Below are positions 2,673 through 47,890 of a stretch of 64,000 nucleotides of DNA, one piece after another. The first letter of the stretch is position 1. Every line of letters begins with the position of its first letter. Location: NCBI GenBank assembly GCA_043800705.1, contig JAZDMS010000040.1:5550-69549 (forward strand), in the 5' to 3' direction. A program made the translations under genes and the position numbers. Origin of the DNA: Candidatus Altiarchaeota archaeon (GTDB lineage: Archaea; Altiarchaeota; Altiarchaeia; IMC4; SCGC-AAA252-I15). The notes under the pieces are model-generated. The model saw only the letters and a list, made by a program, of their open reading frames with translations, searched no databases and had not been told where the DNA came from.

Positions 2673-5000
2673 ATGGCCCTTTTCATCTTGTTCGGTCTCA
2701 CTGCGTTCGAACAGGCTGCAATACTCTCCGTCCTCGGCATCTCCCTCCTCGGCTTACTCTACGCCTACATCCTGCGCAGGCAGATAATGCGTGAGGACAC
2801 AGGCGACGACAAGATGCGGGAAGTCTGGGGCGCGATACGCGAAGGCGCGGAGGCATACCTTTGGAGGCAGCTGAAGGCGGTCCTCCCGCTCATACTGATT
2901 CTGACGGTCGCATTGTTCTTCTCGGTCTACGTCGTCCCCCCGTCTGAGGCGGCCGTGGAGCGCTTCAGCGAATACAGGGACCAGCCGGAGATGATCAGGC
3001 TCATCGTCGGATTGGGCAGGGCGATCGCTTTCGTCATGGGCGCGACGTTCTCGCTTCTTGTCGGCCAGCTCGGGATGCGTATCGCCATTCAGGGTAACAT
3101 CAGGGTCGCAGCGGCGTCGAGGAAATCGTTCGGCGATGCGCTCAGGATCGCATACAGGACGGGGACGGTCACAGGCATGCTCACCGACGGTCTCGGACTC
3201 TTCGGCGGAACAATCATCTTCCTCATATTCGGCGTCGCATCGCCTGACGCCCTGTTGGGCTTCGGGTTCGGCGGAACGCTCCTCGCCCTCTTCATGCGGG
3301 TGGGTGGGGGCATATACACTAAGGCCGCCGACGTCGGCGCGGACCTTGTCGGAAAGGTCGAGGCCGGCATACCCGAAGACGACCCCAGGAATCCGGCGGT
3401 CATAGCTGACCTCGTCGGCGACAACGTCGGCGACTGCGCCGGGATGGCGGCCGACATCTTCGAATCATACGAGGTCACCATAGTATCCTCTCTCATCCTC
3501 GGGCTGGCGCTGTATCAGATCAGCGGCCACATGGAATGGATAATCTATCCGCTCCTGGTGAGGGGGATAGGGGTCCTGTGCTCGATATTCGGCACATACA
3601 TGGTGAAGGCAGGCCCAGGCAAGAGCGGAGACGCGATGGCCGCGATATTCAAGGGCTACATGACATCAGCCCTTATCTCCATACTGCTCATCGGAGCCCT
3701 CGCATACCTCTACATGCAGGCAGTCCCCGGCGGATGGTGGAGGCCGTTCCTGGCGACTGTAGCCGGAATATTGCTGGCCATACTCATCGACCGCCTGACG
3801 GAGCATTTCACAGGCACCAACGGCGGCCCCGTCAACGAGATCAAAAAGGCCACAAGCAGCGGCCCCGCCACGACGATTCTCTCCGGTCTGGCCGTCGGCT
3901 ACGAGTCCGCGGTATGGGCGACGATAGTCATCGCAGCGACGATATTCTCGTCGGTCCTGATATTCGGGGGCATACCCGGCGTCGGCGCCTCCGACAACGT
4001 CACCTACATACTCTTCGGCGTCGCATTGACGGGCATCGGGATGCTCACATTGACGGGCAACAACGTCGCGATGGACACGTTCGGCCCCATCTCCGACAAC
4101 GCGAACGGGATAGGGGAGATGGCCTGGCACGACAAAAACGACGAGGAGACGAAGTCTGCAAGAAGGATCCTATCGGACCTGGACGGCGTCGGGAACACGA
4201 CTAAGGCGATCACGAAGGGTGTCGCGATCGGGTCTGCGGTCATCGCCGCGGTCTCGCTGTTCGGCTCATACATGGTCGACGTAAGCCAGGTGCAGGCTGT
4301 CATGGGCCTTCCTGCGGCCGAGCTTCTGAAGAACGTGGGCATAAGGGTTTCAATGCCCAACGTATTCATCGGCATGCTAATCGGGGGTGCGCTGCCCTGG
4401 CTGTTCTCGTGCTTTTCGATAATGGCAGTTAGCAGGGCCGCGTCGCTGATAGTCGAGGAGGTTAGGCGGCAGTTCCGCTCCGGCGTATTGGATGGGCGGG
4501 TCAAACCAGACTACCAGGCGGCTGTAAGCATATCCACTGCCGCGGCCCAGAAGGAACTGGTCAACCTAGCGCTCCTTGGCATCCTGTCCCCCATCCTCGT
4601 CGGGCTCCTTTTCGGAGTCGAGGCGCTTGGCGGATTCCTCGCGGGAACCATCGTCTCAGGGCAGCTTTTAGCGGTCTTCATGTCCAATGCGGGGGGCGCA
4701 TGGGACAACACGAAAAAGGTCATCGAGGACGAGCCGTCAGACATCCTGAAGAACACAGGAAAAGGCTCGGACCGCCACAAGGCGAGCGTCGTCGGAGACA
4801 CCGTCGGAGACCCGCTGAAGGACACGGCCGGGCCGGCCTTGAACCCCATGATAAAGGTCGTCAACCTTGTCTCCGTGATAATCGCGCCGATCATCGTCCA
4901 ATACGAAAGAAGCGGGGTAGTATACTGGGCGATAGTGGCGGTACTGCTTGGCATATTGGCATGGGCTATTATGGCGAGCAAAAGGCCGGTGCCGGGTTGA
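2673..5000 (+). CDS. hppA: Membrane-bound proton-translocating inorganic pyrophosphatase
   Basis: 775 aa polytopic ORF with the hallmark GGGIYTKAADVGADLVGKVEAGIPEDDPRNPAVIADLVGDNVGDCAGMAADIFESY and a C-terminal VGDTVGDPLKDTAGPALNPMIKV. Confidence 0.92.
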   Translation: MALFILFGLTAFEQAAILSVLGISLLGLLYAYILRRQIMREDTGDDKMREVWGAIREGAEAYLWRQLKAVLPLILILTVALFFSVYVVPPSEAAVERFSEYRDQPEMIRLIVGLGRAIAFVMGATFSLLVGQLGMRIAIQGNIRVAAASRKSFGDALRIAYRTGTVTGMLTDGLGLFGGTIIFLIFGVASPDALLGFGFGGTLLALFMRVGGGIYTKAADVGADLVGKVEAGIPEDDPRNPAVIADLVGDNVGDCAGMAADIFESYEVTIVSSLILGLALYQISGHMEWIIYPLLVRGIGVLCSIFGTYMVKAGPGKSGDAMAAIFKGYMTSALISILLIGALAYLYMQAVPGGWWRPFLATVAGILLAILIDRLTEHFTGTNGGPVNEIKKATSSGPATTILSGLAVGYESAVWATIVIAATIFSSVLIFGGIPGVGASDNVTYILFGVALTGIGMLTLTGNNVAMDTFGPISDNANGIGEMAWHDKNDEETKSARRILSDLDGVGNTTKAITKGVAIGSAVIAAVSLFGSYMVDVSQVQAVMGLPAAELLKNVGIRVSMPNVFIGMLIGGALPWLFSCFSIMAVSRAASLIVEEVRRQFRSGVLDGRVKPDYQAAVSISTAAAQKELVNLALLGILSPILVGLLFGVEALGGFLAGTIVSGQLLAVFMSNAGGAWDNTKKVIEDEPSDILKNTGKGSDRHKASVVGDTVGDPLKDTAGPALNPMIKVVNLVSVIIAPIIVQYERSGVVYWAIVAVLLGILAWAIMASKRPVPG

Positions 5001-13533: not shown

Positions 13534-13584
13534 ACTAAATATTATCCCCGCCAACATAAATACTAGCACTTCGTGTCTTATCAT

Positions 13585-14193
13585 ATGCGCGGATTCTACT
13601 ACATTACCGACTCGAAGATGTGCAGAAAACCCGAGCAGGACGCGGTCAGGGCGGCGATCGAAGGCGGCGCCGCAGTCGTCCAATACCGTGAGAAGGAGCT
13701 GCCGGTCGAGGAAAGGATCCCCATTGCAAGGAAGCTGAGGCTCCTTTGCAGCGGCAGGGCCATATTCATAGTCAACGACGAAGTCGAAGTAGCCCAGGCA
13801 TGCGACGCCGATGGTGTACACCTCGGACAAGATGATATGAGCGTCAAGACCGCACGCTACCTCCTTGGAAAAGACCGGCTGATAGGCGTAACGGTGCATA
13901 ACGTGCAAGAGGCAGTCGCAGCCGACCAGGCCGGCGCCGACTACGTCACAGTCTCGCCCGTGTTCGCCACCTCGACAAAGGCCGACGCCGGGCAGCCCGT
14001 CGGAATCCAGATGATAAAGGACGTAAAGGCCAAGGTGTTGATGCCGGTTGCCGCCATCGGCGGAATAGACGAAAATAACATAGACTCCGTCATCGCGGCA
14101 GGGGCCGACATGGCCTGCGCCATATCCGCCACCGTCTGCAAAGACGATATAAAGGCCGCAGTCAAATATTTCTCCACGAAATGGAAAAGATAG
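13585..14193 (+). CDS. thiE: Thiamine-phosphate synthase
   Basis: MRGFYYITD....VQYREK......IVNDEVEVA....DGVHLGQDD......GVTVHN..EA......ADYVTVSPVF.T.TK.... is a typical ThiE pattern. Confidence 0.85.
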   Translation: MRGFYYITDSKMCRKPEQDAVRAAIEGGAAVVQYREKELPVEERIPIARKLRLLCSGRAIFIVNDEVEVAQACDADGVHLGQDDMSVKTARYLLGKDRLIGVTVHNVQEAVAADQAGADYVTVSPVFATSTKADAGQPVGIQMIKDVKAKVLMPVAAIGGIDENNIDSVIAAGADMACAISATVCKDDIKAAVKYFSTKWKR

Positions 14194-15704
14194 TCGTCCT
14201 CGACTTCGGAGGCCAGTACTGCCACCTCATAGCACGGAGGATAAGGGAGCTTGGAGTCTACTCCGAGGTCATGGCCTCCGACACGTCCGCAAAGGAACTC
14301 AAGGCAACGGGCGGCCTCAAGGGTGTCATCCTCTCCGGCGGAGCCGCATCCGTCTACGACGCAGGCAGCCCGAAATACTCCCCTGACCTACTCGAAGCCG
14401 GAGTCCCGATACTCGGCATCTGCTACGGCCACCAGCTGATAGCGCACATTGCGGGCGGATCCGTCGAAGGCGGGAAGGCCGGAGAATACGGGCTCACGGA
14501 GCTCGCAGTCATGAAGGCGGAAGGCATCCTGAAGGGGGTCAACGGCCGCACGCCGGTCTGGATGAACCACCGCGACGTAGTGACCAAACTCCCGCCCGCG
14601 TACAAGGTCCTGGCCACAACCGCGAACACGCCTGTTGCGGCGTTCGGCAACCCTAAACAGAACATTCACGGCGTCCAATTCCACCCCGAGGTGACCCACA
14701 CCCGCGAGGGGATGAGCATACTCGAGAACTTCGTCGAGATATGCGGCGCAAGCCGCGACTGGAGCATGAAGGACTTCACCGTCAACTCCGTAGAGGAGGC
14801 GAAGTCGGTCATCGGCGGAAGGAGGGCGATCATCGGCCTGTCCGGCGGAGTCGACTCGTCGGCCGCTGCGGTCCTCCTGTCACGGGCCATCGGCGACAGG
14901 CTCACGGCGGTCTACGTCGACACCGGCCTCATGCGCTACCGAGAGACCGAGTTCATGGAAGAGACCTTCTCGGGCAGGGAGATGGACTTCAGGATCGTCA
15001 GGGCCGCCGACAGGTTCTTCGCGGCATTGAAGGGCGTCACCGACCCCGAGCAGAAGAGGAAGATTATCGGGGGCCTGTTCGTAGACATATTCGAGGAGGA
15101 AGCCGTGAAAGTCGGCGCCGAAGTCCTCGTCCAAGGCACGATATACTCGGACCGGATAGAGTCCGGGGTCACCAAGCACTCGGACAACATCAAAAGCCAC
15201 CACAACGTCGGCGGACTCAAGGAGAAGATGAAGCTGGAAGTCTACGAGCCGCTCCGGGACCTGTACAAGGACGAGGTCCGCGAGATCGCAAGGCAGCTGA
15301 AGCTCCCGGAGAAGATAATCACAAGGCACGTGTTCCCCGGCCCCGGCCTCGCCATAAGGATCATCGGAGAAGTCAACCCGAAGACGGCGGACATATGCAG
15401 GAAGGCGGGCAACATCGTCGAGGAGGAGCTGAAGAAGGCGGGAATCTACGAAAAATACTGGATGGGGTTCGCGGTCCTTCTGCCGATAAAGAGCGTCGGC
15501 ATCCAGGGCGACTGCCGAAGCTACAAGCACCCCGTCGTCGTGCGCATAATCGAGTCGAAGGACGCCATGACCGCCAACTTCAGCAAGGTCCCCTACGAGG
15601 TGTTGGAGTCCATATCGACGAGGATAACGAACGAGATAGCCGACATCAACAGGGTCGTCTACGACATAACCAACAAGCCCCCAGCGACCATGGAATGGGA
15701 GTGA
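14181..15704 (+). CDS. guaA: GMP synthase (glutamine-hydrolysing), fused GATase plus ATP-PPase
   Basis: 507 aa with GICYGHQL and HPE (GATase), the GLSGGVDSSAAA P-loop, and the C-terminal ...NRVVYDITNKPPATMEWE. Confidence 0.92.
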   Translation: MEKIVVLDFGGQYCHLIARRIRELGVYSEVMASDTSAKELKATGGLKGVILSGGAASVYDAGSPKYSPDLLEAGVPILGICYGHQLIAHIAGGSVEGGKAGEYGLTELAVMKAEGILKGVNGRTPVWMNHRDVVTKLPPAYKVLATTANTPVAAFGNPKQNIHGVQFHPEVTHTREGMSILENFVEICGASRDWSMKDFTVNSVEEAKSVIGGRRAIIGLSGGVDSSAAAVLLSRAIGDRLTAVYVDTGLMRYRETEFMEETFSGREMDFRIVRAADRFFAALKGVTDPEQKRKIIGGLFVDIFEEEAVKVGAEVLVQGTIYSDRIESGVTKHSDNIKSHHNVGGLKEKMKLEVYEPLRDLYKDEVREIARQLKLPEKIITRHVFPGPGLAIRIIGEVNPKTADICRKAGNIVEEELKKAGIYEKYWMGFAVLLPIKSVGIQGDCRSYKHPVVVRIIESKDAMTANFSKVPYEVLESISTRITNEIADINRVVYDITNKPPATMEWE

Positions 15705-15717
15705 CGGCGGTCCAAAC

Positions 15718-16458
15718 CTACAATACGACACTCTCTTGGCCGCTGACCCATCTGGCTATCTCCTGCGGGCTCGCATGTTCTATCTGGTGCATCCTGACGT
15801 CCGCCGCCGACTTGAGAAGCTGGAACAGGATTAGAAGCAGGGTCGGGCCTGCCATGCTCAGATAGTCCGCCGTGCTCCCCAGTCCAACGAGATACAAGCC
15901 CATGGACAGAAAGATCCCGCCGACGTAGATAAAACCCGAGGCGATTATGGTCAGGTGCATGGGCAAAATCCTGGCGAACGGGATTGCAGCCACGACCCCT
16001 ATGTTCAACCTTTTTGAGCTATCCTCCCTGACATTGTGTATGTAGGAGAATCCGTGGTTGACGAGGAATATTGCCACGGCCAGGAGCATCCACGGAATCT
16101 CCCCCGACAGGATCCGGTATCCCATATCACTCAAGGCAAAGAGCAGGAATACGGCGTAGGCGGCATGGAAAAATCCGAATCCGATAATAAAAATGACGGT
16201 CACCCAGGCTTTCACGGCCGATGAAGGGGTCAACGGCAGGCCGTTTATCTCCACCCCTTCGGTGGAATAATCCCCGAGGCTGAGCATCCTAAGTAGGCTG
16301 AATAGCCCGATGATGAGGCTCTGGCACCAGTAAACCCACAGGACCGTCATCAGGTTCCAACCCTCCAAGACAGCCAGCAGAATCACGAACAGATTAGAGG
16401 CTGCAAGCGACACTGCCGAAGGATCAGACCATGCACTCTTCGCCGCCGCCTCAGGCAT
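15718..16458 (-). CDS. Polytopic membrane protein (DUF6498-like)
   Basis: 246 aa with 6-7 hydrophobic segments. The family call is from memory only. Confidence 0.5.
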   Translation of the reverse strand: MPEAAAKSAWSDPSAVSLAASNLFVILLAVLEGWNLMTVLWVYWCQSLIIGLFSLLRMLSLGDYSTEGVEINGLPLTPSSAVKAWVTVIFIIGFGFFHAAYAVFLLFALSDMGYRILSGEIPWMLLAVAIFLVNHGFSYIHNVREDSSKRLNIGVVAAIPFARILPMHLTIIASGFIYVGGIFLSMGLYLVGLGSTADYLSMAGPTLLLILFQLLKSAADVRMHQIEHASPQEIARWVSGQESVVL

Positions 16459-16510
16459 AGCCTATATCTGACTGCAGTGATAATAAACCCTCAAACAAAG
16501 TAACTATGCT

Positions 16511-16606
16511 ATGAGAATCCGCGACATCGGCGGCGAATTCACGCTAATCAACCGACTCGTATACGACATAACCAATAAACCCCCCGCGACCATGGGGTGG
16601 GCGTGA
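16511..16606 (+). pseudogene. Chimeric relic ORF: thiL 5' end fused to guaA 3' end
   Basis: MRIRDIGGEFTLINR|LVYDITNKPPATMGWA*. The first half parallels thiL (MKIKDIGGEFALINRV at 20148) and the second half parallels the guaA end (NRVVYDITNKPPATMEWE* at 15704). Confidence 0.75.
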
Positions 16607-16609
16607 ACG

Positions 16610-17803
16610 TCAAAGCCCGGTTATTCTGTATCTGATATTCTTTCCGGCAGTTCCGTAACCCGCTTCGAATTCCAGCCTAGCCTCTTTATCCAGGTATCTG
16701 CCGGATATAATCCCTTTATCCTGCCATTGCGTGCCATTACCCTCAGCATCGAAGGAGACCGCGTAGTCATACTCTCCCCCCTTTACCCCACCGCAGCCGG
16801 GCCCTGAAGCCATCCCGTTCAACTGGAATACCATAGTCTTTGTGAACCTGACTACGGGCTTCTCGGCGAGATCCTGGTCCAGGAAAGTTCCCTCAGGCAT
16901 CATATCCCCGTAGCCCCTACCGCCAGTAATCCCCTGGTTCTGGGGCGGGTCCATGTCGACCCCATCCATCATCAAATTAGTTATCCTGCAATCGACTCCG
17001 TTCTTTGAGATTTTAAGGGTTGACCCGTCCAACTCCCCCTCTTCCCCCCCAAACACCAGGGTGAATACCGATTTGTCCGGCTCCGATGAGCCGAAGAAGG
17101 AAATGGGCGCGATAGCCAGCCTATCGAAACCGTCGACCCTTACGACCTCCGTCGGATTCAGGGGGCTGAGACCCGTCACGGATGAAAAAGCGAGCAGGAA
17201 AAAGATTGATGCCCCAAACAGCATCCCCCCCGGAATCAGCCAACATAGGACAGCCTTAATAGCGCTCATCCTGCAGGTCTGACGAAGGATAAGCGTCAGC
17301 AGATAGAATGAAAAAATATGCGGGATATAGCTTACGACGATAGCCCCCATTCCAAAGACCGGCGATATGACCCTCTCCAAAATCCCCTGGATCAACGGCT
17401 GCACAACAGCGGCGATGAGGATATAAACCGGGAAATAAACCGACGCCATCATATAATAGAGCTCAGTGAACGTGCATCTTCCGCCAAGGATCCGTGCGAC
17501 AAGATACTCCCCTCCTGCAAAAATGAACGAGGCAATGAGGCCCATGATGGGATACCCGACCAGGCAGAAGATGAACATGAGGCCTACGATCACAAGGGGG
17601 CTCCCGGTTGCCAGCATCATGAGGGGCAGGGCAAACGCAGCAAACAATGACGCAATAAGGACGACTTCCACGCCTCTCGTCATGGATGCCCGAGGCAGCT
17701 GCCTGGAAATCAGGGCGGAGGGGTTTTTAAACAAAAGAACGGCTTTTTCGCGGAACCTCAATTCCACGCTCAAATCATTTGCAGAAACCGGCTCACCTTC
17801 CAC
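16610..17803 (-). CDS. Membrane protein (Yip1-like N-terminal TM domain plus C-terminal extracytoplasmic domain)
   Basis: 397 aa with 5 TM helices in the first ~215 aa, then a soluble beta-rich region. GC looks lower than the flanks by eye. Confidence 0.5.
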   Translation of the reverse strand: MEGEPVSANDLSVELRFREKAVLLFKNPSALISRQLPRASMTRGVEVVLIASLFAAFALPLMMLATGSPLVIVGLMFIFCLVGYPIMGLIASFIFAGGEYLVARILGGRCTFTELYYMMASVYFPVYILIAAVVQPLIQGILERVISPVFGMGAIVVSYIPHIFSFYLLTLILRQTCRMSAIKAVLCWLIPGGMLFGASIFFLLAFSSVTGLSPLNPTEVVRVDGFDRLAIAPISFFGSSEPDKSVFTLVFGGEEGELDGSTLKISKNGVDCRITNLMMDGVDMDPPQNQGITGGRGYGDMMPEGTFLDQDLAEKPVVRFTKTMVFQLNGMASGPGCGGVKGGEYDYAVSFDAEGNGTQWQDKGIISGRYLDKEARLEFEAGYGTAGKNIRYRITGL

Positions 17804-17906
17804 TGAATAATCTATCTGCGGGAATCCCTTAAATAATCCCTATATCATCCGATCCGTCAGAACAAGGATCAGCAAAGTCCGGTACGAAGTGTTGGCGTCC
17901 CTCACA

Positions 17907-18581
17907 TTATTCCGATCGCCTGCAGTATCCGGTCACACAATACAGGTTGCCTATCTTTTTGACTTCATGACTGGGGAAGCCGCTTTCCGCCATCAACGAA
18001 TCCACGCGGCTTCTACTGTAGAAATATACTTCACACCCTCCCAGCATCAGCCTCGTCTTTCTGATAGGTGCCCTCCAGGTCATCAGCCTGGGAAAAGATA
18101 AAACGACCACGTCCCCTGTCGCATCCCGCATCTTCTTGAGTAATGGCAGAGGCTCCTTAACGTAGTCGAATAATCCCATGCCTATGCACGCATCGAATTT
18201 CTCTGCGCCAACGTAGGCGTCTAGGCTCGAATGTATGAAACTGCATCTGTCATCAACGCCGTTTTCCCGGGCGTTTCTCCTGGAAAGCCTTACCATGTTT
18301 TCCGATATGTCCAGGCCGACCACGCGCAGGGCTCCGTGTCTTGCGGCTTCCACGCTGTACTTCCCGCTTCCGCATCCCACGTCAAGAACAGTTTTCCCCT
18401 CCAATGGCCGGATCTTTCCCATCGCATACTCGAATCGCCCGTACATGTCTGCCCTGAAGATGCGGTCGATCAGGTTCGACAACGCCGACTTATCGTGAGA
18501 ATAAATCTTCTGGAACGACTCCGACTCGCTATTCCAATATTCCCTTTGGGTTTTCACAGCTCTAGACCCTCCCTTATGCAA
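17907..18581 (-). CDS. Class I SAM-dependent methyltransferase
   Basis: Contains the VLDVGCGSGKYS motif I and GLDISENM. Confidence 0.75.
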   Translation of the reverse strand: MHKGGSRAVKTQREYWNSESESFQKIYSHDKSALSNLIDRIFRADMYGRFEYAMGKIRPLEGKTVLDVGCGSGKYSVEAARHGALRVVGLDISENMVRLSRRNARENGVDDRCSFIHSSLDAYVGAEKFDACIGMGLFDYVKEPLPLLKKMRDATGDVVVLSFPRLMTWRAPIRKTRLMLGGCEVYFYSRSRVDSLMAESGFPSHEVKKIGNLYCVTGYCRRSE

Positions 18582-19375
18582 GTGAACCTGAAATCATCTA
18601 AAAGGCGCTCAAGCCGCCCGCGAGTCCCCCCGAGATTGCGGTAATGCCTGAACCTCTTGGTTAAGGGCAGTTCCACGCGAGGCTGCCCGGGATCGAGCTC
18701 CCAGGGATGTATATAAAAGACTACTGGCCGGCCATTATTATTGCAATTCCTGATACAGTACCTTGTATAGGCATACGGGAATATGCGGAAGTAGCCGCCG
18801 CCGCTGCAAGGCAGCCGCATGCCGAAAAACTCCGCGCAGGAGAGCGGGAATTCGGTTATTCCGGCGGATATCTTGTACGGCTTAAGCGGCGCATCGGGCA
18901 CGCCATAATCCGGATGGAAAGAGATAGGAAAAACTGACGAGTCATACTTGAGCCCATATTCCTCCAACACCTCCAACGCCCAAAAAGTCTCCGGTTTTAG
19001 CGTGAATGAGGGAGCCCGGTACCCCAGGATTTTCTGTTTAACGCCGCAGTCCCTGACGCAGTCCAAGGCCTTCCCGACGTCTATCCTAAATTCTTCCTTA
19101 TCCATCTGGCTCAACAGTGAATGGCCGTATCCGTGAATCCCTATCTCATGGCCGGCCTCGTCTATCTTCCGGATCAGATCAGGTACACGCTCCGCAATCC
19201 ATCCCAAAACGAAGAAAGTGGCCTTAACCTTGTGGATTTCGAGCAGATCAAGTATCTGGTTTAACCCAATCCCGACTCTCAACTCGCATGAGTCCCAATT
19301 GCGTCTGTCGATGACCCGGCTGAGATTGCTGACGCAAAACCAATCCTCCACATCCACGGAAAAATAATTCAACAT
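18554..19375 (-). CDS. Polysaccharide deacetylase family protein (DUF3473-type)
   Basis: N-terminal FSVDVEDWF and HEIGIHGYGH motifs, with an FR.TCI tail typical of the exopolysaccharide-locus deacetylase subfamily. Confidence 0.75.
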   Translation of the reverse strand: MLNYFSVDVEDWFCVSNLSRVIDRRNWDSCELRVGIGLNQILDLLEIHKVKATFFVLGWIAERVPDLIRKIDEAGHEIGIHGYGHSLLSQMDKEEFRIDVGKALDCVRDCGVKQKILGYRAPSFTLKPETFWALEVLEEYGLKYDSSVFPISFHPDYGVPDAPLKPYKISAGITEFPLSCAEFFGMRLPCSGGGYFRIFPYAYTRYCIRNCNNNGRPVVFYIHPWELDPGQPRVELPLTKRFRHYRNLGGTRGRLERLLDDFRFTCIREGLEL

Positions 19376-19511
19376 ATGCCGGTATAGTATTACCCCGCAG
19401 GATAAAAAATCTCCAGCTTAAAAACCGCCCTCAAACGGGGGATTGATGCGTCGGATCCTTAGGCGACGACGCTCTTGACACATATGAAGCCAACGGAATA
19501 CGATAGAACGA

Positions 19512-20108
19512 TCAGGCATCCTTCTCGATGCCGTCGGCTATATCGCATAATACGTTGATCATCTCAGCCATCCTCTTTGGCTCGTAGATTATCCTCCGGC
19601 TCTTGAATAAAATCTCCCCCTGTTCTGTCGATACCTCATCCCTGCTGTGAATCATCAATCTTTTCAGCCTGGATTCCACCGAATCGGTAAACACTCTGGC
19701 AGCTTTTGACTTGTCGGGCGCATAAATGTTCAATTCCCCGTTTTTCCCCTCGCCTCTTTTTACGAGAAAATTGTCGCTCTCACCCTCGTATGCCGCATAT
19801 ACCCATGTCGCATACCTCTCGATCAATCCTTTCCTTTCGAGTCGCACCCCCGCTTGTCTCCCCCTCACCTCGAAATCCACGCATGTTCCCGGATTCCATC
19901 CATCTGGTATTTCGCACCCCAGTTCCTCTGAAAGCTCCCTCAGCACCCTCTGAAACCTTGGTTTGGTGCTGATCTCATACCACATATACGGTTGGCTGCC
20001 GCTCAGCAGTATCATGCCCCCCTTCGGGCCGATCAAACGGGCGACTAACAGCATAAAGGCTGCGAAAGCTAACAGGATAATGGACGCCAGAGAAGAACTA
20101 ATCTCCAT
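19512..20108 (-). CDS. Hypothetical N-terminally anchored protein
   Basis: 198 aa with a single N-terminal TM segment (SSLASIILLAFAAFMLLVARLIG). No other motifs. Confidence 0.45.
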   Translation of the reverse strand: MEISSSLASIILLAFAAFMLLVARLIGPKGGMILLSGSQPYMWYEISTKPRFQRVLRELSEELGCEIPDGWNPGTCVDFEVRGRQAGVRLERKGLIERYATWVYAAYEGESDNFLVKRGEGKNGELNIYAPDKSKAARVFTDSVESRLKRLMIHSRDEVSTEQGEILFKSRRIIYEPKRMAEMINVLCDIADGIEKDA

Positions 20109-20147
20109 GGTGTTTTATTCATCTCAGTACAATAAATGCAAGATAAC

Positions 20148-21092
20148 ATGAAAATCAAGGACATAGGCGGCGAGTTCGCCCTCATCAACAGGGTTGCTCG
20201 GCCTGGCGGGGCGGTCGTCGGAGTAGGCGACGACGCGGCGGTCCTGAAGTATACGAAGGAGCGGTATCAGCTTTTCACGACCGACATGCTCTGCGACGGC
20301 GATCATTTCCGCCGCGACTGGGCCAGCCCCGAACAGATAGGGATGAAGGCGATGGAGGTCAACGTCTCAGACATCGCAGCAATGGGCGGCCTCCCCACAT
20401 ACGCTGTCATCTCAATATCACTGACACATGACACGTCGGTCGAGTTCATGGACCGCCTCTACAAAGGCTTGTACCACGTCGCCGACAAATACGACCTCAA
20501 CATCGTCGGCGGAGACACCACGCACGCGGACATGATGGTCATAAACGTCTCAATGCTCGGAGAAGTGGAAAAGGACAGATTATGCCTGCGCTCAGACGCG
20601 AAGGTCGGCGACCTCATATGCGTCACAGGCGACCTCGGAAAAAGCGCCGCAGGCCTCGAACTTTTGAAGGGGGGAATGCGCGGCGAGCTCACAGCGTATC
20701 TGGAGCCGAAATGCAGGCTAAAGGAGGCCAGGAAAATCTCACACTATGCAAACGCGATGATAGACGTCTCCGACGGCCTGGCAAGCGAAGTCAACCACAT
20801 CTGCCATATGAGCAAGGTCGGGGGCCTCGTGAGAAAGGAGGACATACCCATATCCAAATCCACTATCGAATCCGCGCATAAGGTCGGCAAAGACCCGTAC
20901 GATTACGCATTGAACGGGGGGGAAGACTTCGAGCTCGTGTTCACCGTCCCTCAAGCGTACCTGGGGAAGGTGGCGCACATAGATTGCCCGGTCACTGTCG
21001 TCGGAGAGATAGTGGAGAAAAGGCAGGGTTTGACGATTGAGTCGTGCGGCAGGAAAAAGCCCCTGAAGGGAGGATACGACCACTTCAAGTAG
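20148..21092 (+). CDS. thiL: Thiamine-monophosphate kinase
   Basis: MKIKDIGGEFALINRV..GDDAAVL.....TTDML..G.HF... has the AIR-synthase-like fold pattern. Start chosen at the second ATG, supported by the relic copy at 16511. Confidence 0.85.
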   Translation: MKIKDIGGEFALINRVARPGGAVVGVGDDAAVLKYTKERYQLFTTDMLCDGDHFRRDWASPEQIGMKAMEVNVSDIAAMGGLPTYAVISISLTHDTSVEFMDRLYKGLYHVADKYDLNIVGGDTTHADMMVINVSMLGEVEKDRLCLRSDAKVGDLICVTGDLGKSAAGLELLKGGMRGELTAYLEPKCRLKEARKISHYANAMIDVSDGLASEVNHICHMSKVGGLVRKEDIPISKSTIESAHKVGKDPYDYALNGGEDFELVFTVPQAYLGKVAHIDCPVTVVGEIVEKRQGLTIESCGRKKPLKGGYDHFK

Positions 21093-22674
21093 GTGTTTGG
21101 TTGAAGCGGAAAACCGCCATGGCCGGATATTCTCCCATTTCCACGCGCTCGTATTCGACGCTGTCCTTCATCATTTTCTCCAGTGTGGCGATGTCGACCT
21201 GATTTTTCGGAGCTAAACCGGATTCTAACGACACGTAAGCCGGATCATACGATCTTAACAGAGCCAGTCCGCCCTCAGGTTTCCACTCCCAATTCCTCAG
21301 GATGATTTGATCGCATTTTGCGCCATTTCGGAACCGGAAAAGGGCTGAATAATACTTTGCCTCCTGAGCCCGATAATCGTATCCGAAGATCTCGACAATC
21401 CTCATAGTACCGTTCGCCTGAAGGCCGCAGGCTTTCTCCATGAATCCCATAAGCTGCTCTTTATCGCTGTCGTGCGTCTGCAGCCCATTGAGGAAGGCTG
21501 TCCCGTCAGGTTTCCCCGCCAAACTGAAAGCCCACGAATCCACAAGGAGCAACTGTAATGTTAGGAGCGCTAAGGCGGCAAGCGCGAAAGTTCTCGCATA
21601 CTTGTCTGCCCGGCTTAAAATCCAACAGGAAACGACTGCGAAATATGGAAGTAGTGGGAGTAGGAATCTCGGGAACTCGTTGGTGGAAAAGGAAAAGACC
21701 AGATAAAACAGGATTATCTGAAAAATCGAGGCCATCAAATATATGTCCCACGATTTGAATCCCTTTTTCACCGTGATCCATGCGAGAGCAAAAGGGGCGA
21801 AGATGAACATTGCGATCGTGAAGCCTGTTGTCAGGTTCACCCCCGATATCCCGGCCAATATCTGGAGCTTGCTGATGACATCCGCCCTATGCCCCCATCG
21901 GGGGGATGTTGCGGAAGAAACCGCGTGGCCCCAGGCCGGGCCGATGTGTAAATAGAACCAGGCGGACGCCGACGCCGCCAAAACCAAGGCTGCGAACGCC
22001 AAGAGCGGGTTCAACTTCGCGAAGCCAAAGCCTTTCCCTCGGATTCTGGCCAACACTAGGGCCGCGGGCCCGATGCAGTAAAGGGGGGAGGACAGTTTCG
22101 AGAGGGCTCCTATGGATGCGGCTGCCAAAATGCTTGCAAGGATCGTTGCCTTGTCCATGGAGGCTGCACGGACCATAATCCTCATGAACAGGGTCACCGA
22201 CAGGAGGACGAAGACGTCAGAGTAATACTGCCCCGACATTGCGACGAATATCGGCGCGGCAGCGATAACGGCGCAGCCCGCAAGGGAGATGAGACGGTTG
22301 AAGTACATGGACTTCAGCGTTCCAAACATGATCCCAAGGGTCAGAACCTGCACAAGGAAGACCGGCAGCCGAAGGCCGAACTCCATCGATTTCGTCAACA
22401 ATCCAAGCGGGACGAAAAACTGCCCGACCCAAATCATCAAAGGCGGCTTATATGGGGATATTTGAAAAACCAAAGACAGCCAATTTTTGGGGTTGCTTTT
22501 TAGCTCCGAATAGAGCCTCAAAGACTCTTCGGCGTAGTCGAGGCAGTCGCCACTCGGAAGTTTGGCGTCTAGGGCTATCCACACCAGACTCGGAGCCGCA
22601 AGAAGCAGGATGAAAAGGACAGCATATGTGTCCCCTCCTGCACGGAGACTTTTCAGCCGAGATTCCGGCAGCAT
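21085..22674 (-). CDS. Dolichyl-phosphate-dependent glycosyltransferase (ArnT/PMT-like, GT-C fold)
   Basis: About 12 TM helices plus a C-terminal soluble domain. Start moved to MLPESRLKSL so that the AT-rich tract at 22680-22720 is intergenic. The start is uncertain (alternatives at 22728 or 22878). Confidence 0.55.
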   Translation of the reverse strand: MLPESRLKSLRAGGDTYAVLFILLLAAPSLVWIALDAKLPSGDCLDYAEESLRLYSELKSNPKNWLSLVFQISPYKPPLMIWVGQFFVPLGLLTKSMEFGLRLPVFLVQVLTLGIMFGTLKSMYFNRLISLAGCAVIAAAPIFVAMSGQYYSDVFVLLSVTLFMRIMVRAASMDKATILASILAAASIGALSKLSSPLYCIGPAALVLARIRGKGFGFAKLNPLLAFAALVLAASASAWFYLHIGPAWGHAVSSATSPRWGHRADVISKLQILAGISGVNLTTGFTIAMFIFAPFALAWITVKKGFKSWDIYLMASIFQIILFYLVFSFSTNEFPRFLLPLLPYFAVVSCWILSRADKYARTFALAALALLTLQLLLVDSWAFSLAGKPDGTAFLNGLQTHDSDKEQLMGFMEKACGLQANGTMRIVEIFGYDYRAQEAKYYSALFRFRNGAKCDQIILRNWEWKPEGGLALLRSYDPAYVSLESGLAPKNQVDIATLEKMMKDSVEYERVEMGEYPAMAVFRFNQTPT

Positions 22675-22771
22675 CCAAGGTAATCTATTTTCGATGAATA
22701 ATAATCGTTTTAAAAATGCCAGCCTCATGGCAATTCCACCGATTATATACTCCTTCGACAAATATCCCTTT

Positions 22772-23497
22772 ATGGTAGTGAACATCGTCGTGACCGGCAA
22801 GGTCCCTGACAATCCAACCATCATCGAAGCGTTCCCGAGCAGGGGATACGTCAGCACCATAGCAGGCAACCACCTCATCCGCCAGGAGAAGATGGAACAG
22901 ATCGGCTACATAGAGTCCGACAAGCTCGACGCCATCGCAGTCGTCCACGACGGCAAGCCCATGCACCCCATACGGATATACTCGAAGGGCGACCTGGTCG
23001 TCCTGTTCTCCGAGCTGATAATCCCCCTCAACCTCACACACGAGTTCAGCACCGAAGTCATAAACTGGTTCAAGAAGATCAAGCCGAAGAAGGCGATCCT
23101 CCTGGCAAGCATCCCCGGGGTCGAGACCAGCAAGGAGCATGAGATATTGGCCGTGTCCACCGACGGGCAGATGATCGAGAAGATCAAGGCGTTGAAGATC
23201 AAGCAGATGAACGAGGGCGTCCTCACCGGGATGAGCTCGAGCCTGATGATAAAATGCTGCTGCTTAGAAATACCAGTCACGTCTCTGATGGTGGAGACGA
23301 CCTACATACCCGACGTGCTCGCGGCGGCGAGCCTCATGAAGATGCTAAGCGACATCCTCGGCCTTACCGTCAGCATAGAGGAGCTAACGAAGGCGGGCCA
23401 CGACATCGAGGAGAAGTTCCGCGAAAACCTCGAACAGATGAAGATCGGCCAGGAAAACTTCAAAGAGATGCACCAACAATTGCCAATGTACAGATAG
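22772..23497 (+). CDS. PAC2-family (proteasome assembly chaperone-like) protein
   Basis: ..IIEAFPSRGYVSTIAGNHLI....IGYIES......V.V..G....PIRIY...DLVVLFSE..IP... is a typical PAC2/COG1938 layout. The start is uncertain (22727 or 22772). Confidence 0.65.
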   Translation: MVVNIVVTGKVPDNPTIIEAFPSRGYVSTIAGNHLIRQEKMEQIGYIESDKLDAIAVVHDGKPMHPIRIYSKGDLVVLFSELIIPLNLTHEFSTEVINWFKKIKPKKAILLASIPGVETSKEHEILAVSTDGQMIEKIKALKIKQMNEGVLTGMSSSLMIKCCCLEIPVTSLMVETTYIPDVLAAASLMKMLSDILGLTVSIEELTKAGHDIEEKFRENLEQMKIGQENFKEMHQQLPMYR

Positions 23498-25631: not shown

Positions 25632-25831
25632 GTGGCGGACATCCGGAAGTGGCTTCTTGGATCGACGCGCAGGTGGCTCCGGCGCGGTTCTCGCCCCCGC
25701 ACCCCCACAAGCACAGTCCACTGAAGTTATGGCTGCTGCCTTCCGGCCCTGACCAGATTCCTAAAATAGACCATCCAGTGAGACGAAGGCTCACGGTTCC
25801 GCACCGGACCCGCACGGCAACCCAAGACTCG

Positions 25832-25901
25832 CCTCCCGGCATTCAGCCCCGCCTAAGACGATTTGCGGCAACAGGCTACGCCTACCAGCCCGGCCTAGTC
25901 C
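25832..25901 (+). repeat. 70-bp direct repeat, copy 1
   Basis: CCTCCCGGCATTCAGCCCCGCCTAAGACGATTTGCGGCAACAGGCTACGCCTACCAGCCCGGCCTAGTCC matches 65/70 positions of the copy at 27402. Confidence 0.85.
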
Positions 25902-25979
25902 ACCGGTCAATGTATACGCAAAATCAGATTAAAAAACCAACCTCTCTCGCTCTTATACCTGGAAAATAATTTTTGTATT

Positions 25980-27374
25980 ATGTCCCCCATTATTCGTGTT
26001 CTCTTCGGCAAATCGAAAGGAAGATTTTTTCTGTTCATGCTATCCCTGCTGTCTGCTTTTATCGTTGTCGGCCAAGCGTCAGCCACCGAAGTCATTGTTG
26101 TCGGCAGGGAGCCGGCCACCAAGGTCATTCTTGTCGGCGGGGCGTCAGACAGGGAGCTTAAGGACTGCTGGGATAGCGGATACGCGCCCGAAAGGGTCTC
26201 ATGCTATGCGAGGTATGCTTTCGAAATGGACGATCCCGGAATATGCGATCAAAGCCCCTATCATAGGTTTGACCGGGATCCATGTTTTAAGCTCTTAACA
26301 ACGTCCTTGAAAAACAACACTCCGTGCGCAAGCATGAGGCGCGGGAATTCCCAAGCATTGTGCTATCGGATCATGTCCGTCTCAGACGACGGCGCACTCG
26401 CAGCATCGGTCCTCGGCAATTTCTCGGCCCCTGAAGACTGCGGTGTAGATTGCATGTCCCGCATCGCCGTTTTGATGCAAATGCCGGAAATCTGCAATAC
26501 GATGATGTTCAGTCGCGATTCCTGTTTTGCTGAAGTCGCGATTAGGCTAAACGATTCTGGCGTGTGCGAAAGGATGCTAGGAAACAGGGGTCGTTGCTAT
26601 TCCGCGATGGCTATGAGGCTCGGTAACATTTCATTCTGCGACAAGATTGAAACGCCTGACCTAAGGCTCGGCTGCCAGATTGAAATGGCTGTGTGGGCCG
26701 GTGACGCGTCAATCTGCCCTAAGGTCGCTGGCATTAACGTCTCCCGCGGCGACGAATGCTTCATGAAGCTTGCATTGGGGCTGGGGGACGCCTCCTTATG
26801 CGGTAACATATCCTTACATCCCGGGGGAAAATTCCTTAAGAATGATGCTAGCAGGGACAACTGCTTCGAGGAGGTTGCCTTGAGGCTGAGGAACGAATCC
26901 GTCTGCAAGAACATCGAAGGCGAGAAAGATTGGTGCATTGCAAGAATAGCAAAGGACTATGCCATGTGCGAGAATTTAGAGGGCCCATGCCAGGTATACG
27001 TCTGCATGTCCCGTTTGGATGGGGTGAAAATATCCAATCCGGCTCCCAGCGATTGCGAGATCTATCGCACCCCCCGGGCCATAGTCACCGTAACCTACAA
27101 CATCAGGATTTTATTACTGGTCATAAGCATATTCGTAGCGGCTCTATATTGTCTTGCACAAACCGCGAAAGAGTTGATTTCGTCCCGGAAGGCGGATAGA
27201 AGACCGGATATCAAAGCCTTGGCAAAGAAAATGATCCTGTTCGTCCTGATTTTGGCGGCATTAAACATCCTCGCCTATGCCTACGTATCCATCTATCTCG
27301 CATATGAGCCTCCGACGACCGCCGCCGCAAAATTCAGCGAAATGAAATTTTTTATGGAGGGAGGAGCAATTTGA
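25980..27374 (+). CDS. Secreted, C-terminally anchored protein built of about 10 tandem Cys-pair modules
   Basis: Signal/TM at the N-terminus and two TM helices at the C-terminus. The modules look like C[FY]xxhAhxLxDxShCxxh (e.g. CFAEVAIRLNDSGVCERM, CFEEVALRLRNESVCKNI, CFMKLALGLGDASLCGNI). Confidence 0.6.
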   Translation: MSPIIRVLFGKSKGRFFLFMLSLLSAFIVVGQASATEVIVVGREPATKVILVGGASDRELKDCWDSGYAPERVSCYARYAFEMDDPGICDQSPYHRFDRDPCFKLLTTSLKNNTPCASMRRGNSQALCYRIMSVSDDGALAASVLGNFSAPEDCGVDCMSRIAVLMQMPEICNTMMFSRDSCFAEVAIRLNDSGVCERMLGNRGRCYSAMAMRLGNISFCDKIETPDLRLGCQIEMAVWAGDASICPKVAGINVSRGDECFMKLALGLGDASLCGNISLHPGGKFLKNDASRDNCFEEVALRLRNESVCKNIEGEKDWCIARIAKDYAMCENLEGPCQVYVCMSRLDGVKISNPAPSDCEIYRTPRAIVTVTYNIRILLLVISIFVAALYCLAQTAKELISSRKADRRPDIKALAKKMILFVLILAALNILAYAYVSIYLAYEPPTTAAAKFSEMKFFMEGGAI

Positions 27375-27401
27375 CTGATACCACGGACGAGACAAAGCGT
27401 C

Positions 27402-27471
27402 CTCCCGGCACTCAGCCCCGCCTAAGACGATTTGCGGCGGCAGGCTGCGCCTGCCAGCCCGGCCTAGTCCG
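27402..27471 (+). repeat. 70-bp direct repeat, copy 2
   Basis: It has five transition differences from copy 1 and lies exactly 1570 bp downstream. It contains a perfect hairpin GGCAGGC-TGC-GCCTGCC that copy 1 lacks. Confidence 0.85.
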
Positions 27472-35389: not shown

Positions 35390-35487
35390 CGGTCTTCGGT
35401 TCTCGGTTCTCGGTTTTCCGTCAAGACTGAAAACTGAGAACTGAAAACTGAAAACTGAAAACTGCAGACAGGAAACCGCAGACCGTG
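35390..35487 (+). repeat. Heptad-periodic long hairpin element, copy 1 (possible 3'UTR/terminator structure)
   Basis: (CGGTTCT)2 CGGTTTT CCG-tcaaga-CT GAAAACT GAGAACT (GAAAACT)3 starts 1 nt after the TAG stop. The arms pair with one G-T (G-U) per heptad. Confidence 0.7.
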
Positions 35488-37400: not shown

Positions 37401-37457
37401 AAAGAAACATATTCGGTTGATATGTGCATGTTTGTCCATCAGCAGCTACCCTTGTCG
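37401..37457. repeat. 57-bp direct repeat, copy 1 (period 90 bp)
   Basis: AAAGAAACATATTCGGTTGATATGTGCATGTTTGTCCATCAGCAGCTACCCTTGTCG matches 54/57 positions of the copy at 37491. Confidence 0.9.
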
Positions 37458-37486
37458 CAAACTTTTCTTTTGTAAAGAAAAGTTTG
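37458..37486. other. Perfect 13-bp AT-rich hairpin between the two 57-bp repeats
   Basis: CAAACTTTTCTTT-tgt-AAAGAAAAGTTTG. Confidence 0.85.
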
Positions 37487-37490
37487 ACCA

Positions 37491-37547
37491 AAAGAAACAT
37501 ATTCGGTTGATATATGCATATCTGTCCATCAGCAGCTACCCTTGTCG
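37491..37547. repeat. 57-bp direct repeat, copy 2
   Basis: It has three substitutions relative to copy 1 and overlaps the 3' half of the C/D sRNA candidate on the minus strand. Confidence 0.9.
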
Positions 37548-39982: not shown

Positions 39983-41254
39983 TCAAACCCCATTTTTCGG
40001 TTTTTTCACGGTCTTTTCGGCCTTTTTCCCGGATCCTCCGTTTTCGAGGTTGTATCTGACCACCTTCTCCTTGAAATCCATTATCGCCGCGTGGTAGTTG
40101 AGGCCCGCGTCGAACGGGTTGCCGTGGTGGCTGAAGTACTCGTGGACGGAGCCGTCGCCCATCCCCTTCGTGCACATGTAGTAATAGTGGTCGCTTATCT
40201 GGAACATCTTCCACACCTTCATCATCTCCGGGTTCTTGGAGGCCCTCACGTCGTTTTCCATCTCCTTCAGCCTGGAGAAGTTCAAATGCTGCATGTGGTT
40301 GCCGAGCCATGCGCTGGCGTCCCGCTCCATGTCAGCCCAGCTGACTGTCTCATACCAGGGGACCGTGATCTCCCCCCTCGGATAATACCTGTCCGCGACC
40401 TCGCTCGGCGTGTTGAACTCCAGGTTCTGCTTCTCCAGTATCTTATGCGGCATCGCATCCAGGAAGTGGAATATGCCAGTGTCCTCCCACTGGTGTTCGC
40501 CGAAGGTCTCATAGTCCATGAAGATGTTGATCGTGTCCTCGGCCGACCAGCTCAGCCAGTCCGCATACTTCTCCGCGGAAAGCGGCCAACCCGGCCACCA
40601 CTTCGCGCTGAAACGGTATCCGACGTCGTCGGAGAGCTTGTAATTCCTCAAAAGGACCTTCAGCTTCCCCCCCTTCCTCGTATAGACGAAATTAGGGCTT
40701 CTCCACCCGTCCAAGACCCTCTCGATCCCCTCGGTGAGTATGGCCTTGAACCCCATCTCCTCAGCCTCCTTCGCGATCGTGTCGTGGTACAGGAGCTCCG
40801 TGTTCCTGAACACCTTCGGCTTCTGGCCGAGGTAGTCCTTCACCATCTGCTGGTGCTCCAATACCTGCTCCCTGAACTCCTCCCTCTGCTCGAAGAGGCT
40901 CGCCAAGGAATGGTACCTGGTCTCGTTGATGAACTCGCAGCAGCCGGACTTCCCCAACTGCCTGAAAAGGTCCAAAAGGTCCGGCTCCCACCTCTCCATC
41001 TGCTCTAAAATGGAACCGGAAAGCGAATACGAGACCTTGAACTTCCTGTTCTGGCCTTTGAGGCGGTCGATGTTGGCCATGATGTTCTTCGTCGCAGGCC
41101 AATAACACTTCTTCGCCACCTTATGCAAAGTCCACTCATTGAGGCCGTTGTCGAAATAATAGTCCTCTAGGCCGTTCTTCGGGACCCCATTCGGCCAGAA
41201 CCACTTCAGACGAAACGGCTGGTGGACTTGAAAATATAAGCAGACGGATGTCAT
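39983..41254 (-). CDS. Glycoside hydrolase family 57 protein (alpha-amylase/glucanotransferase type)
   Basis: N-terminal MTSVCLYFQVHQPFRLKWF.., ..FMDYETFGEHQWE.. (catalytic region pattern), ..W.GN..Q. Confidence 0.8.
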   Translation of the reverse strand: MTSVCLYFQVHQPFRLKWFWPNGVPKNGLEDYYFDNGLNEWTLHKVAKKCYWPATKNIMANIDRLKGQNRKFKVSYSLSGSILEQMERWEPDLLDLFRQLGKSGCCEFINETRYHSLASLFEQREEFREQVLEHQQMVKDYLGQKPKVFRNTELLYHDTIAKEAEEMGFKAILTEGIERVLDGWRSPNFVYTRKGGKLKVLLRNYKLSDDVGYRFSAKWWPGWPLSAEKYADWLSWSAEDTINIFMDYETFGEHQWEDTGIFHFLDAMPHKILEKQNLEFNTPSEVADRYYPRGEITVPWYETVSWADMERDASAWLGNHMQHLNFSRLKEMENDVRASKNPEMMKVWKMFQISDHYYYMCTKGMGDGSVHEYFSHHGNPFDAGLNYHAAIMDFKEKVVRYNLENGGSGKKAEKTVKKPKNGV

Positions 41255-41394
41255 ATCACTCCCCCCGCTTTATTCGGCCCCTCTTTCTTTTTCGCCAGCG
41301 TTTTTCTTTCTGGGAGAGAAAGAAAAAGGCTGGGCTTGAACCACTTCAACCTGAACGGCTGATGGACTTGAAAGTATAGGCAGACTGAAGTCAT
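41251..41394 (-). CDS. 47-codon upstream ORF whose first 19 codons duplicate the GH57 N-terminus; its stop overlaps the GH57 start
   Basis: MTSVCLYFQVHQPFRLKWFKPSLFLSLPERKTLAKKKEGPNKAGGVI*. The TGA overlaps the ATG at 41254 (ATGA). It contains a perfect 10-bp hairpin at 41301-41327. Confidence 0.4.
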   Translation of the reverse strand: MTSVCLYFQVHQPFRLKWFKPSLFLSLPERKTLAKKKEGPNKAGGVI

Positions 41395-41559
41395 AACACA
41401 ACCCCCTCACGGCCTAGATGACAGATGCTGAACGAATATATCACCAATACACCCCCTAAAAATTCCCCCTAAAAACGACTGTAGAATCATTAGGCGGACG
41501 GATATAAAAGGAGAAGATTGCTTTTCGGCAGTTTTACGCCTATTGGGCCTTGTAGGCTT

Positions 41560-47810: not shown

Positions 47811-47890
47811 GTCTTCGGTTTTCGGTTTTCGGTTTTCCGTTTTCCGTCAAGACTGGAAACTGAGAACTGGAAACTGGGGACTGCGGACCG
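47811..47890 (+). repeat. Heptad-periodic long hairpin element, copy 2
   Basis: CTT (CGGTTTT)3 CCGTTTT CCG-tcaaga-CTG GAAACTG AGAACTG GAAACTG GGGACTG. It shares the core GGTTTTCCGTCAAGACTG.AAACTGAGAACTG with copy 1 and lies between convergent gene ends. Confidence 0.7.

Follow-up and report, generated by a model that had tools for sequence, protein, structure and literature searches.

The subject of this analysis is a small chimeric open reading frame (ORF) between the genes guaA and thiL in a 64,000-nt stretch of DNA, referred to here as the window (contig JAZDMS010000040.1, positions 5,550 to 69,549). The window is archaeal. Its proteins are deposited under a Candidatus Altiarchaeota metagenome-assembled genome (MAG), and it contains an archaeal signal recognition particle (SRP) RNA at 25633-25905 on the minus strand. 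The ORF lies at 16511-16606 on the plus strand, has 31 codons, and is confirmed to be a true thiL-5'::guaA-3' junction, which begins as thiL, ends as guaA, and sits between intact copies of both genes. The reading that we favor, with somewhat better than even confidence, is that the ORF is a non-functional recombination scar in a composite island that grew by step-wise accretion, and that it was left by a crossover between two haplotypes.

A chimera of the thiL start and the guaA end

The product of the mini-ORF is MRIRDIGGEFTLINRLVYDITNKPPATMGWA, followed by a stop codon, and is annotated at NCBI as hypothetical protein MFH0863302.1 (V1875_09800). Both parents are intact in the window. The guaA gene (14181-15704, plus strand) encodes 507 aa ending in PPATMEWE and contains the Pfam domains GATase and GMP_synt_C. 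The thiL gene (20148-21092, plus strand) encodes 314 aa from the ATG at 20148, the same start as in the NCBI protein MFH0863307.1, and contains AIRS and AIRS_C. In the chimera, a thiL head (16511-16546) is followed by a crossover zone (16547-16558) and a guaA tail (16559-16606). The crossover zone reads ATC AAC CGA CTC (ATCAACCGACTC) and encodes INRL. A preliminary description of this DNA, made from the sequence alone, had proposed this parentage, and nucleotide alignment gave the same counts. Positions 16511-16555 differ from thiL 20148-20192 at 11 of 45 nt, with three conservative replacements (K2R, K4R, and A11T), and 16556-16606 differ from guaA 15654-15704 at 8 of 51 nt, five of them at third codon positions. 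The switch of parent was also placed correctly. It is bracketed to codons 13-16, in an INR[L/V] patch that both genes encode, with codons 1-15 assigned to the thiL head and codons 17-31 to the guaA tail.

Both relationships appear as the top local repeats by repeat search and blastn. The thiL-head repeat pairs 16511-16552 with 20148-20189 (42 nt, 79% identical by repeat search), and the INRV patch of thiL itself is at 20183-20194. The guaA-tail repeat pairs 15645-15704, which includes the INRV patch of guaA, with 16547-16606 (60 nt, 83% identical, blastn E 1.7e-10), and its copies lie on both sides of a cargo block called X below. The chance of such matches was estimated as the probability of at least the observed number of matches multiplied by all window positions. 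This resulted in ~1-2e-12 for the guaA tail (at least 50 of 60 nt) and ~1e-5 for the thiL head (at least 33 of 42 nt), supporting the claim that the similarity exceeds chance. The two pieces are also contiguous and in frame, which goes beyond the separate chance figures. A downstream-gene head joined to an upstream-gene tail is what an unequal or illegitimate crossover between guaA and thiL characteristically leaves.

For comparison, relatives were collected by GuaA-based and ThiL-based searches. They are Altiarchaeota-like MAGs or metagenome contigs, with L and P numbers for loci and contigs, and the closest have 80% identity in GuaA and 79% in ThiL. The preliminary description had the two halves joined at a 12-nt microhomology, and this was true only in part. 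The string CATCAACAGGGT is indeed identical in guaA (15644-15655) and thiL (20183-20194), and the switch does fall in the shared patch, but the chimera carries ATCAACCGACTC instead, with CGA rather than AGG as its Arg codon. Because the chimera lacks the string, CATCAACAGGGT is not demonstrable as the recombination substrate. CGN codons for this Arg are found at the INR site in guaA and thiL of the relatives alike. Identity over 12 nt for the same INRV peptide has a 5-10% chance, as estimated from genome codon usage (AGG 48%, AAC 86%, and ATC 48%). The identity between the resident genes may be partly expected from codon bias, and it may be a coincidence or a by-product. Around the patch, guaA 15632-15655 and thiL 20171-20194 have 20 of 24 nt in common. 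The residue before NR in the window guaA is Ile; among 68 homologues it is Val in 62, including every close relative examined, and Ile in 6. The 20-nt likeness could be a coincidence or the conversion footprint of recombination between the patches.

The divergence of the chimera from its resident parents is informative about its source. Compared with a composite of resident thiL and guaA, it has 19 nucleotide differences, distributed 4/4/11 over the three codon positions, and 6 amino-acid changes. Multi-step swaps keep the residue class, as in AAG to CGC (Lys to Arg) and AGG to CGA (Arg kept). Nei-Gojobori counting against this composite gave a pN (nonsynonymous) of 0.10, a pS (synonymous) of 0.575, and an omega of ~0.10 over the 31 codons. 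Neutral decay was simulated by letting the relic drift neutrally while the parents changed synonymously only. Six or fewer amino-acid changes were seen in 0.3% of these runs (P ~0.003), and in 0 of 3,455 runs of a second setting in which all change was placed in the relic. The halves are no nearer to the window genes, with 11 (thiL half) and 8 (guaA half) differences, than are orthologues from MAGs with 63-79% ThiL identity, with 7-13 and 5-9 differences. The thiL half is nearest to L081, with 8 differences compared to 11 for the window thiL, and its R2, R4, and L16 are found in natural ThiL N-termini of relatives. The low omega and the orthologue-like distances indicate that most of the divergence arose inside working genes, that is, in another lineage. 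As far as can be read from the sequence, this points to gene ends of another lineage as the probable source of both halves.

Two features suggest a different kind of change on top of this. The chimera has GWA in place of the C-terminal EWE of GuaA, with which every one of the 92 other guaA tails in the collected loci ends. The chimera also uses codons that are rare in the genome (CGA 3%, AGA 6%, and AAT 14%), and AAT, AAA, GAA, CTA, and CGA are all unusual. Together, GWA and the rare codons argue for some decay after the event and against the guaA half being part of a working guaA.

Since the mini-ORF has an open frame with an ATG and a low omega compared to its parents, it could be taken for a functional micro-protein under selection. 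It might even be expressed, since the A/T-rich 52-nt spacer before it contains a TATA-like box, ATAATAAA, which was read by eye ~27 nt upstream of the ATG. We find this reading scarcely credible. The low omega mirrors the constraints on the parents rather than a role for the chimera, and EWE, the best conserved of the guaA residues, has been lost. The 31-aa protein is a singleton cluster among ~15 billion proteins, a degenerate pattern of the junction peptide had 0 matches in JGI metagenome contigs, and no orthologue was found in 168 loci, where only ordinary guaA tails and thiL heads matched. The NCBIfam scan of the product recognized only the guaA C-terminus. Among the relatives, the loci with DNA sequence contain no chimera and no extra thiL head or guaA tail. 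For annotation, hypothetical protein V1875_09800 is better treated as a relic than as a gene.

The window comes from a MAG and both halves of the chimera look derived from a second lineage, so an assembly artifact was considered, in which two co-occurring related populations were joined at shared thiL-head/guaA-tail sequence. This is very improbable. In the resident genes the shared patch spans no more than 12 nt, much shorter than the k-mers of assemblers, and the GWA end does not fit the end of another population's live guaA, given that all 92 real tails end in EWE. Both flanks also share synteny with the same relatives, with comparable identities, and the GC content at third codon positions (GC3) of housekeeping genes is alike on either side.

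An insertion hot spot between guaA and thiL

In the window, thiE (13573-14193, plus strand; Pfam TMP-TENI, E 5e-60), the gene for thiamine-phosphate synthase, is the first gene of a conserved thiE-guaA-thiL backbone. The order thiE-guaA is also found in L001, L002, L081, L085, and L086, and the window guaA is 80% identical to that of L001. Synteny was compared, as the preliminary description had suggested, and six related lineages (L001, L002, L003, L081-083, L084, and L087) have guaA directly next to thiL or overlapping it. The stop and start overlap as GTGA in L001 and as TAATG in L081-083, and the gaps in L002, L003, L084, and L087 are 0-27 nt. This tight arrangement in six lineages indicates that the 4.4 kb found in the window is an insertion into a translationally coupled pair.

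Other relatives have cargo at the same boundary, which is occupied in 6 of 12 lineages with at least five different contents. L085 has a 47-aa ORF, a radical-SAM/HemN_C gene, and a helix-turn-helix gene, all on the minus strand. The P0029 contig has two minus-strand genes there, of 47 and 442 aa. On the P0023 contig, a 458-aa minus-strand gene is separated by 3 nt from the gene upstream and by 52 nt from thiL; the contig ends within that upstream gene, which is assumed to be guaA. In L086 (7812-8654) and on the P0027 contig, the boundary is occupied by a plus-strand gene for a HAD hydrolase. The contigs of P0023, P0027, and P0029 belong to JGI sample 3300075153 and were read as gene tables. 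The presence of different cargo at one boundary in other relatives identifies it as an insertion hot spot. The HAD hydrolase might add a function to the thiamine operon, e.g., as a phosphatase. The 47-aa ORF is Lys-rich (L085 1969-2112, minus strand), and both there and on the P0029 contig its reverse-strand stop comes directly past the guaA stop. Since the cargo of these two is otherwise different, this ORF may be a conserved small gene or a common cargo end.

The window island consists of five minus-strand genes over ~4.4 kb, and Pfam and NCBIfam scans agreed with their preliminary description. Left of the chimera, block X (15705-16510) contains one gene on the minus strand, 15718-16458, with a DUF6498 domain (Pfam, E 1.6e-38). 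The best non-self DUF6498 homologues are ~40% identical and in bacterial-type contexts, and no guaA/thiL context was found near them. To the right is cargo Y, which we divide into two parts. Block Y1 (16610-17803, minus strand) encodes a Yip1-like multi-pass membrane protein, with a weak Pfam Yip1 match (E 2e-4) that is under the cut-off. The NCBI start gives it 357 aa (16610-17683), and its stop codon is 3 nt past the chimera stop. Among 5.8 billion proteins it had no homologue but itself, and there was no link to the 442-aa or 458-aa cargo genes of the relatives. Block Y2 (17907-20147, minus strand) has three genes with a GC3 of 0.62-0.64, followed by a 39-nt spacer before thiL. They encode a class-I S-adenosylmethionine methyltransferase (17907-18581; Pfam), a polysaccharide deacetylase of the XrtA-system type with Polysacc_deac_1 and DUF3473 domains (18554-19375; NCBIfam TIGR03006, 332 bits compared to a cut-off of 276), and a 198-aa protein (19512-20108) without a family match. 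Each of the two cargo blocks, X and Y, begins 3-13 nt past a guaA-type stop, and 39-52 nt separate its end from a thiL-type ATG. The Pfam and NCBIfam scans detected no integrase, recombinase, or transposase domain in the five island proteins.

The island was also said to be lower in GC content. Positions 16001-20000 are indeed the lowest 4-kb block, at 0.52 compared to a window mean of 0.564, but the difference is modest, and several other window genes have a GC3 as low as that of the island genes (0.62-0.72). GC3 is 0.84 for guaA and 0.75 for thiL.

The preliminary description also held that the present gene order is the expected product of a duplication. This did not hold. Self-blastn detected no similarity between the left block (15705-16510, 0.8 kb) and the right block (16607-20147, 3.5 kb), and their gene contents differ.

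A possible second guaA relic, corresponding to GuaA residues ~450-479, is present at 17835-17906 on the plus strand, in the gap between the start of the Yip1-like gene and the stop of the methyltransferase gene. In its core (17869-17900), 27 of 32 nt are identical to guaA 15580-15611, and ISKVRYEVLASL is encoded in frame where guaA has FSKVPYEVLESI. Its local score of 22 is just above the highest control values, which were 20 among 24 other blocks of the window and 21 among 40 shuffles. The likeness is suggestive of a further guaA fragment. If so, it hints that Y itself may be two blocks joined by a similar event, and the probable fragment between Y1 and Y2 suggests that events of the junction kind occurred more than once.

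Favored history and competing readings

The chimera, the ancestral adjacency of its parents, the hot spot, the lack of homology between X and Y, and a divergence pattern like that under selection are demonstrated by the comparisons above. The favored history would begin with an ancestor that had a tight thiE-guaA-thiL operon, with the guaA stop touching or overlapping the thiL start. Two diverged haplotypes or lineages would have carried different cargo at the boundary, one as guaA-X-thiL and the other as guaA-Y-thiL. The INR(V/L) patch at the thiL start of one haplotype would then have paired with the near-identical patch at the guaA end of the other, resulting in an unequal, illegitimate crossover guided by microhomology. 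The product would be additive, guaA - X - (thiL head::guaA tail) - Y - thiL, with the full genes intact and both cargos retained. The 31-codon junction ORF would have decayed afterwards, changing EWE to GWA and acquiring rare codons.

In a shorter notation, with r for the INR patch, b for the guaA tail, and c for the thiL head, the interval today reads a-r-b, X, c'-r'-b', Y, c-r-d. The first parent would have been a-r-b-X-c'-r'-d' and the second a''-r'-b'-Y-c-r-d, with the crossover joining the thiL patch of one to the guaA patch of the other, in that order. This product would result from direct unequal exchange, from Campbell-type insertion of a circle closed at r, or from homology-facilitated illegitimate recombination with imported DNA, and the three routes are indistinguishable here. 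We infer the two-haplotype crossover and its route from the arrangement. The model is supported because different cargos occur at the boundary and because the gene ends are xenologous by the omega test. The preliminary description had the island genes as accessory cargo gained or remodeled after the event. They are lineage-specific cargo, as it proposed, but the event itself most likely joined two cargos.

Several points weigh against the two-haplotype crossover. Among the relatives, of which the nearest has a ThiL that is 79% identical, no haplotype with X alone or Y alone was found. A sliding comparison of guaA with five relatives detected no mosaic breakpoint, at low power since these are at most 80% identical. 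The selection test is based on a mere 31 codons. Finally, a small in-situ duplication combined with homologous import of cargo and its flanking gene ends would give the same pattern.

The last point is the basis of another possible history, one we consider doubtful. A unit of ~100 nt would first have been duplicated by slippage or unequal sister exchange, giving guaA-chimera-thiL, and X and Y would have been inserted separately later, perhaps with foreign gene ends by homologous recombination. The INR patches would be ~96-110 nt apart in a compact ancestor, an easy substrate for slippage, and two insertions are conceivable at a hot spot. The matching distances of both blocks from a guaA-type stop and a thiL-type ATG also fit. 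However, this history requires three events rather than two, and the bare duplication is absent from all six compact relatives. Neutral decay of an in-situ copy is rejected by the simulation, so xenologous ends imported with each cargo would be needed.

Tandem duplication of the whole 4.4 kb was considered and rejected, since X and Y are unrelated. Derivation of the junction from the resident copies, as a simple tandem duplication would require, is not supported either, given the 19 differences, the omega of ~0.10, and the rejection of neutral decay at P ~0.003.

The scar is a rare readable record of gene addition in an uncultured archaeal lineage, with no integrase visible, and the boundary within an essential, translationally coupled operon is a recurrent insertion site. 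The favored history would have an illegitimate crossover account for one of the insertion steps, at a patch a few codons long and between genomes that were ~20% diverged. It also suggests that islands at such boundaries grow by addition and leave fragments of the flanking genes as seams. Head-to-tail chimeras of neighboring genes could be used as markers to search for such events.

Other insertions and likeness to known systems

Several further insertions and repeats were observed. About 70 nt of the 5' end of the SRP RNA gene are present in two copies (25832-25901 and 27401-27470) that are 93% identical and 1.5 kb apart. They flank a 464-aa ORF (25980-27374) with a GC3 of 0.61 and without a family match. 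In L082, the SRP RNA is directly followed by the next gene, a 193-aa minus-strand ORF. The arrangement resembles a second lineage-specific insertion, again lacking an integrase, that duplicated the end of its target. A PMT_2-type glycosyltransferase gene (21085-22878, minus strand, GC3 0.64) lies between thiL and a PAC2-family gene, and PAC2 comes directly after thiL in L081 and L082. This gene is probably another lineage-specific insertion by the same operon.

On L056, a Methanobacteriota MAG contig, the last 101 nt of guaA are present in three direct copies (2467-2567, 3494-3594, and 3682-3782), with 91% (second) and 76% (third) identity to the first copy. The first and second copies are separated by a 61-aa ORF and, on the opposite strand, a 171-aa ORF. 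The layout is the tandem pattern typical of integration at the guaA 3' end, in this case in an archaeon.

Smaller repeats are found elsewhere in the window. A dispersed 61-nt element (35390-35450 and 47816-47876, 90% identical) lies just past gene ends. It consists of GGTT(C/T)TC heptamers, a center of CGTCAAGACTG, and complementary GA(A/G)AACT heptamers, which form a long hairpin resembling a repetitive extragenic palindromic or terminator-like repeat. An HSP20-family gene has an in-frame 63-nt tandem duplication (47174-47302, 98.5%). Two 57-nt copies 90 nt apart (37401-37547, 95%), two 69-nt copies 140 nt apart (41198-41406, 83%), and two tandem paralogous genes (939-2136, 74% over 268 nt) were also seen.

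The 3' end of guaA is known to serve as an attachment site. The island GIsul2 integrates there, at GAGTGGGA, the EWE codons (PMC9376610), and streptococcal integrative and conjugative elements (ICEs) target the same end (PMC4701971). Repeated integration at this site, with one element carrying a thiL head from an earlier aberrant excision and with the integrase and most of the element since lost, could account for the 60-nt guaA-tail repeats around X. The three guaA-tail copies of L056 with small cargo between them, and the second window island with its SRP-RNA repeats, are in line with such a process. We nevertheless consider it quite improbable for the chimera. The five island genes include no integrase, recombinase, or transposase domain, and aberrant excision is an extra step. 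Duplication of an attachment (att) site yields tail-cargo-tail and not a thiL head fused to a tail, and interleaved repeat pairs are impossible from two independent att-type insertions. A separate candidate, with one such integration at the guaA tail and another at the thiL head, was considered and rejected: it predicts tail-E1-tail-head-E2-head, but the middle actually has the order head-tail and the repeats are interleaved.

Capture without an integrase is another possibility, which we regard as unlikely. The boundary between the guaA stop and the thiL start would be an integrase-independent capture site, with the INR patches, encoded in every guaA tail and thiL head, as short direct repeats around any cargo. 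Cargo would loop out as a circle closed at thiL head::guaA tail and re-enter other genomes by short homology. The chimera would then be a fixed attP-like junction, and the SRP-RNA-flanked insertion would be a second example.

The junction can be compared to four kinds of known systems. It is like the junction ORFs of tandem duplications and unequal crossovers in having a thiL head and then an in-frame guaA tail, a switch in a short shared patch, and both parents intact. It differs in that the chimera is flanked by unrelated segments and is 16-24% diverged from the resident genes in a selection-like pattern. The lack of relation between X and Y and this divergence argue that it is not a recent duplication within one genome.

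In homology-facilitated illegitimate recombination, foreign DNA is added via one homologous anchor and one microhomology join. This process has been described in naturally transformable bacteria and is not known from Altiarchaeota. The window resembles it in the additive foreign DNA beside conserved genes, the joint at a few shared nucleotides, and the ~20% divergence of donor and recipient ends. No donor anchor was located in guaA by comparison with relatives that are at most 80% identical, which gives low power. The concept is used in PMC6382021.

The islands formed by GIsul2 and the ICEs at the guaA 3' end share with the window a direct repeat of the guaA tail that flanks cargo, cargo right past the guaA stop, and blocks separated by fragments of the target gene. 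In contrast to them, the window island is without an integrase or recombinase, its relic includes the head of the downstream gene, and its repeat pairs are interleaved.

Flexible hot-spot islands lie between conserved core genes and are exchanged by recombination in their flanks. The window fits this description in its conserved guaA and thiL flanks and in the variety of cargo sets found at the boundary across the 12 lineages. It differs in being flanked by a translationally coupled gene pair from a single operon, and in that one exchange left a chimeric relic of the flanks. The feature is, thus, a further example of a known recombination joint, or seam of an accretive island, and not a new kind of system.

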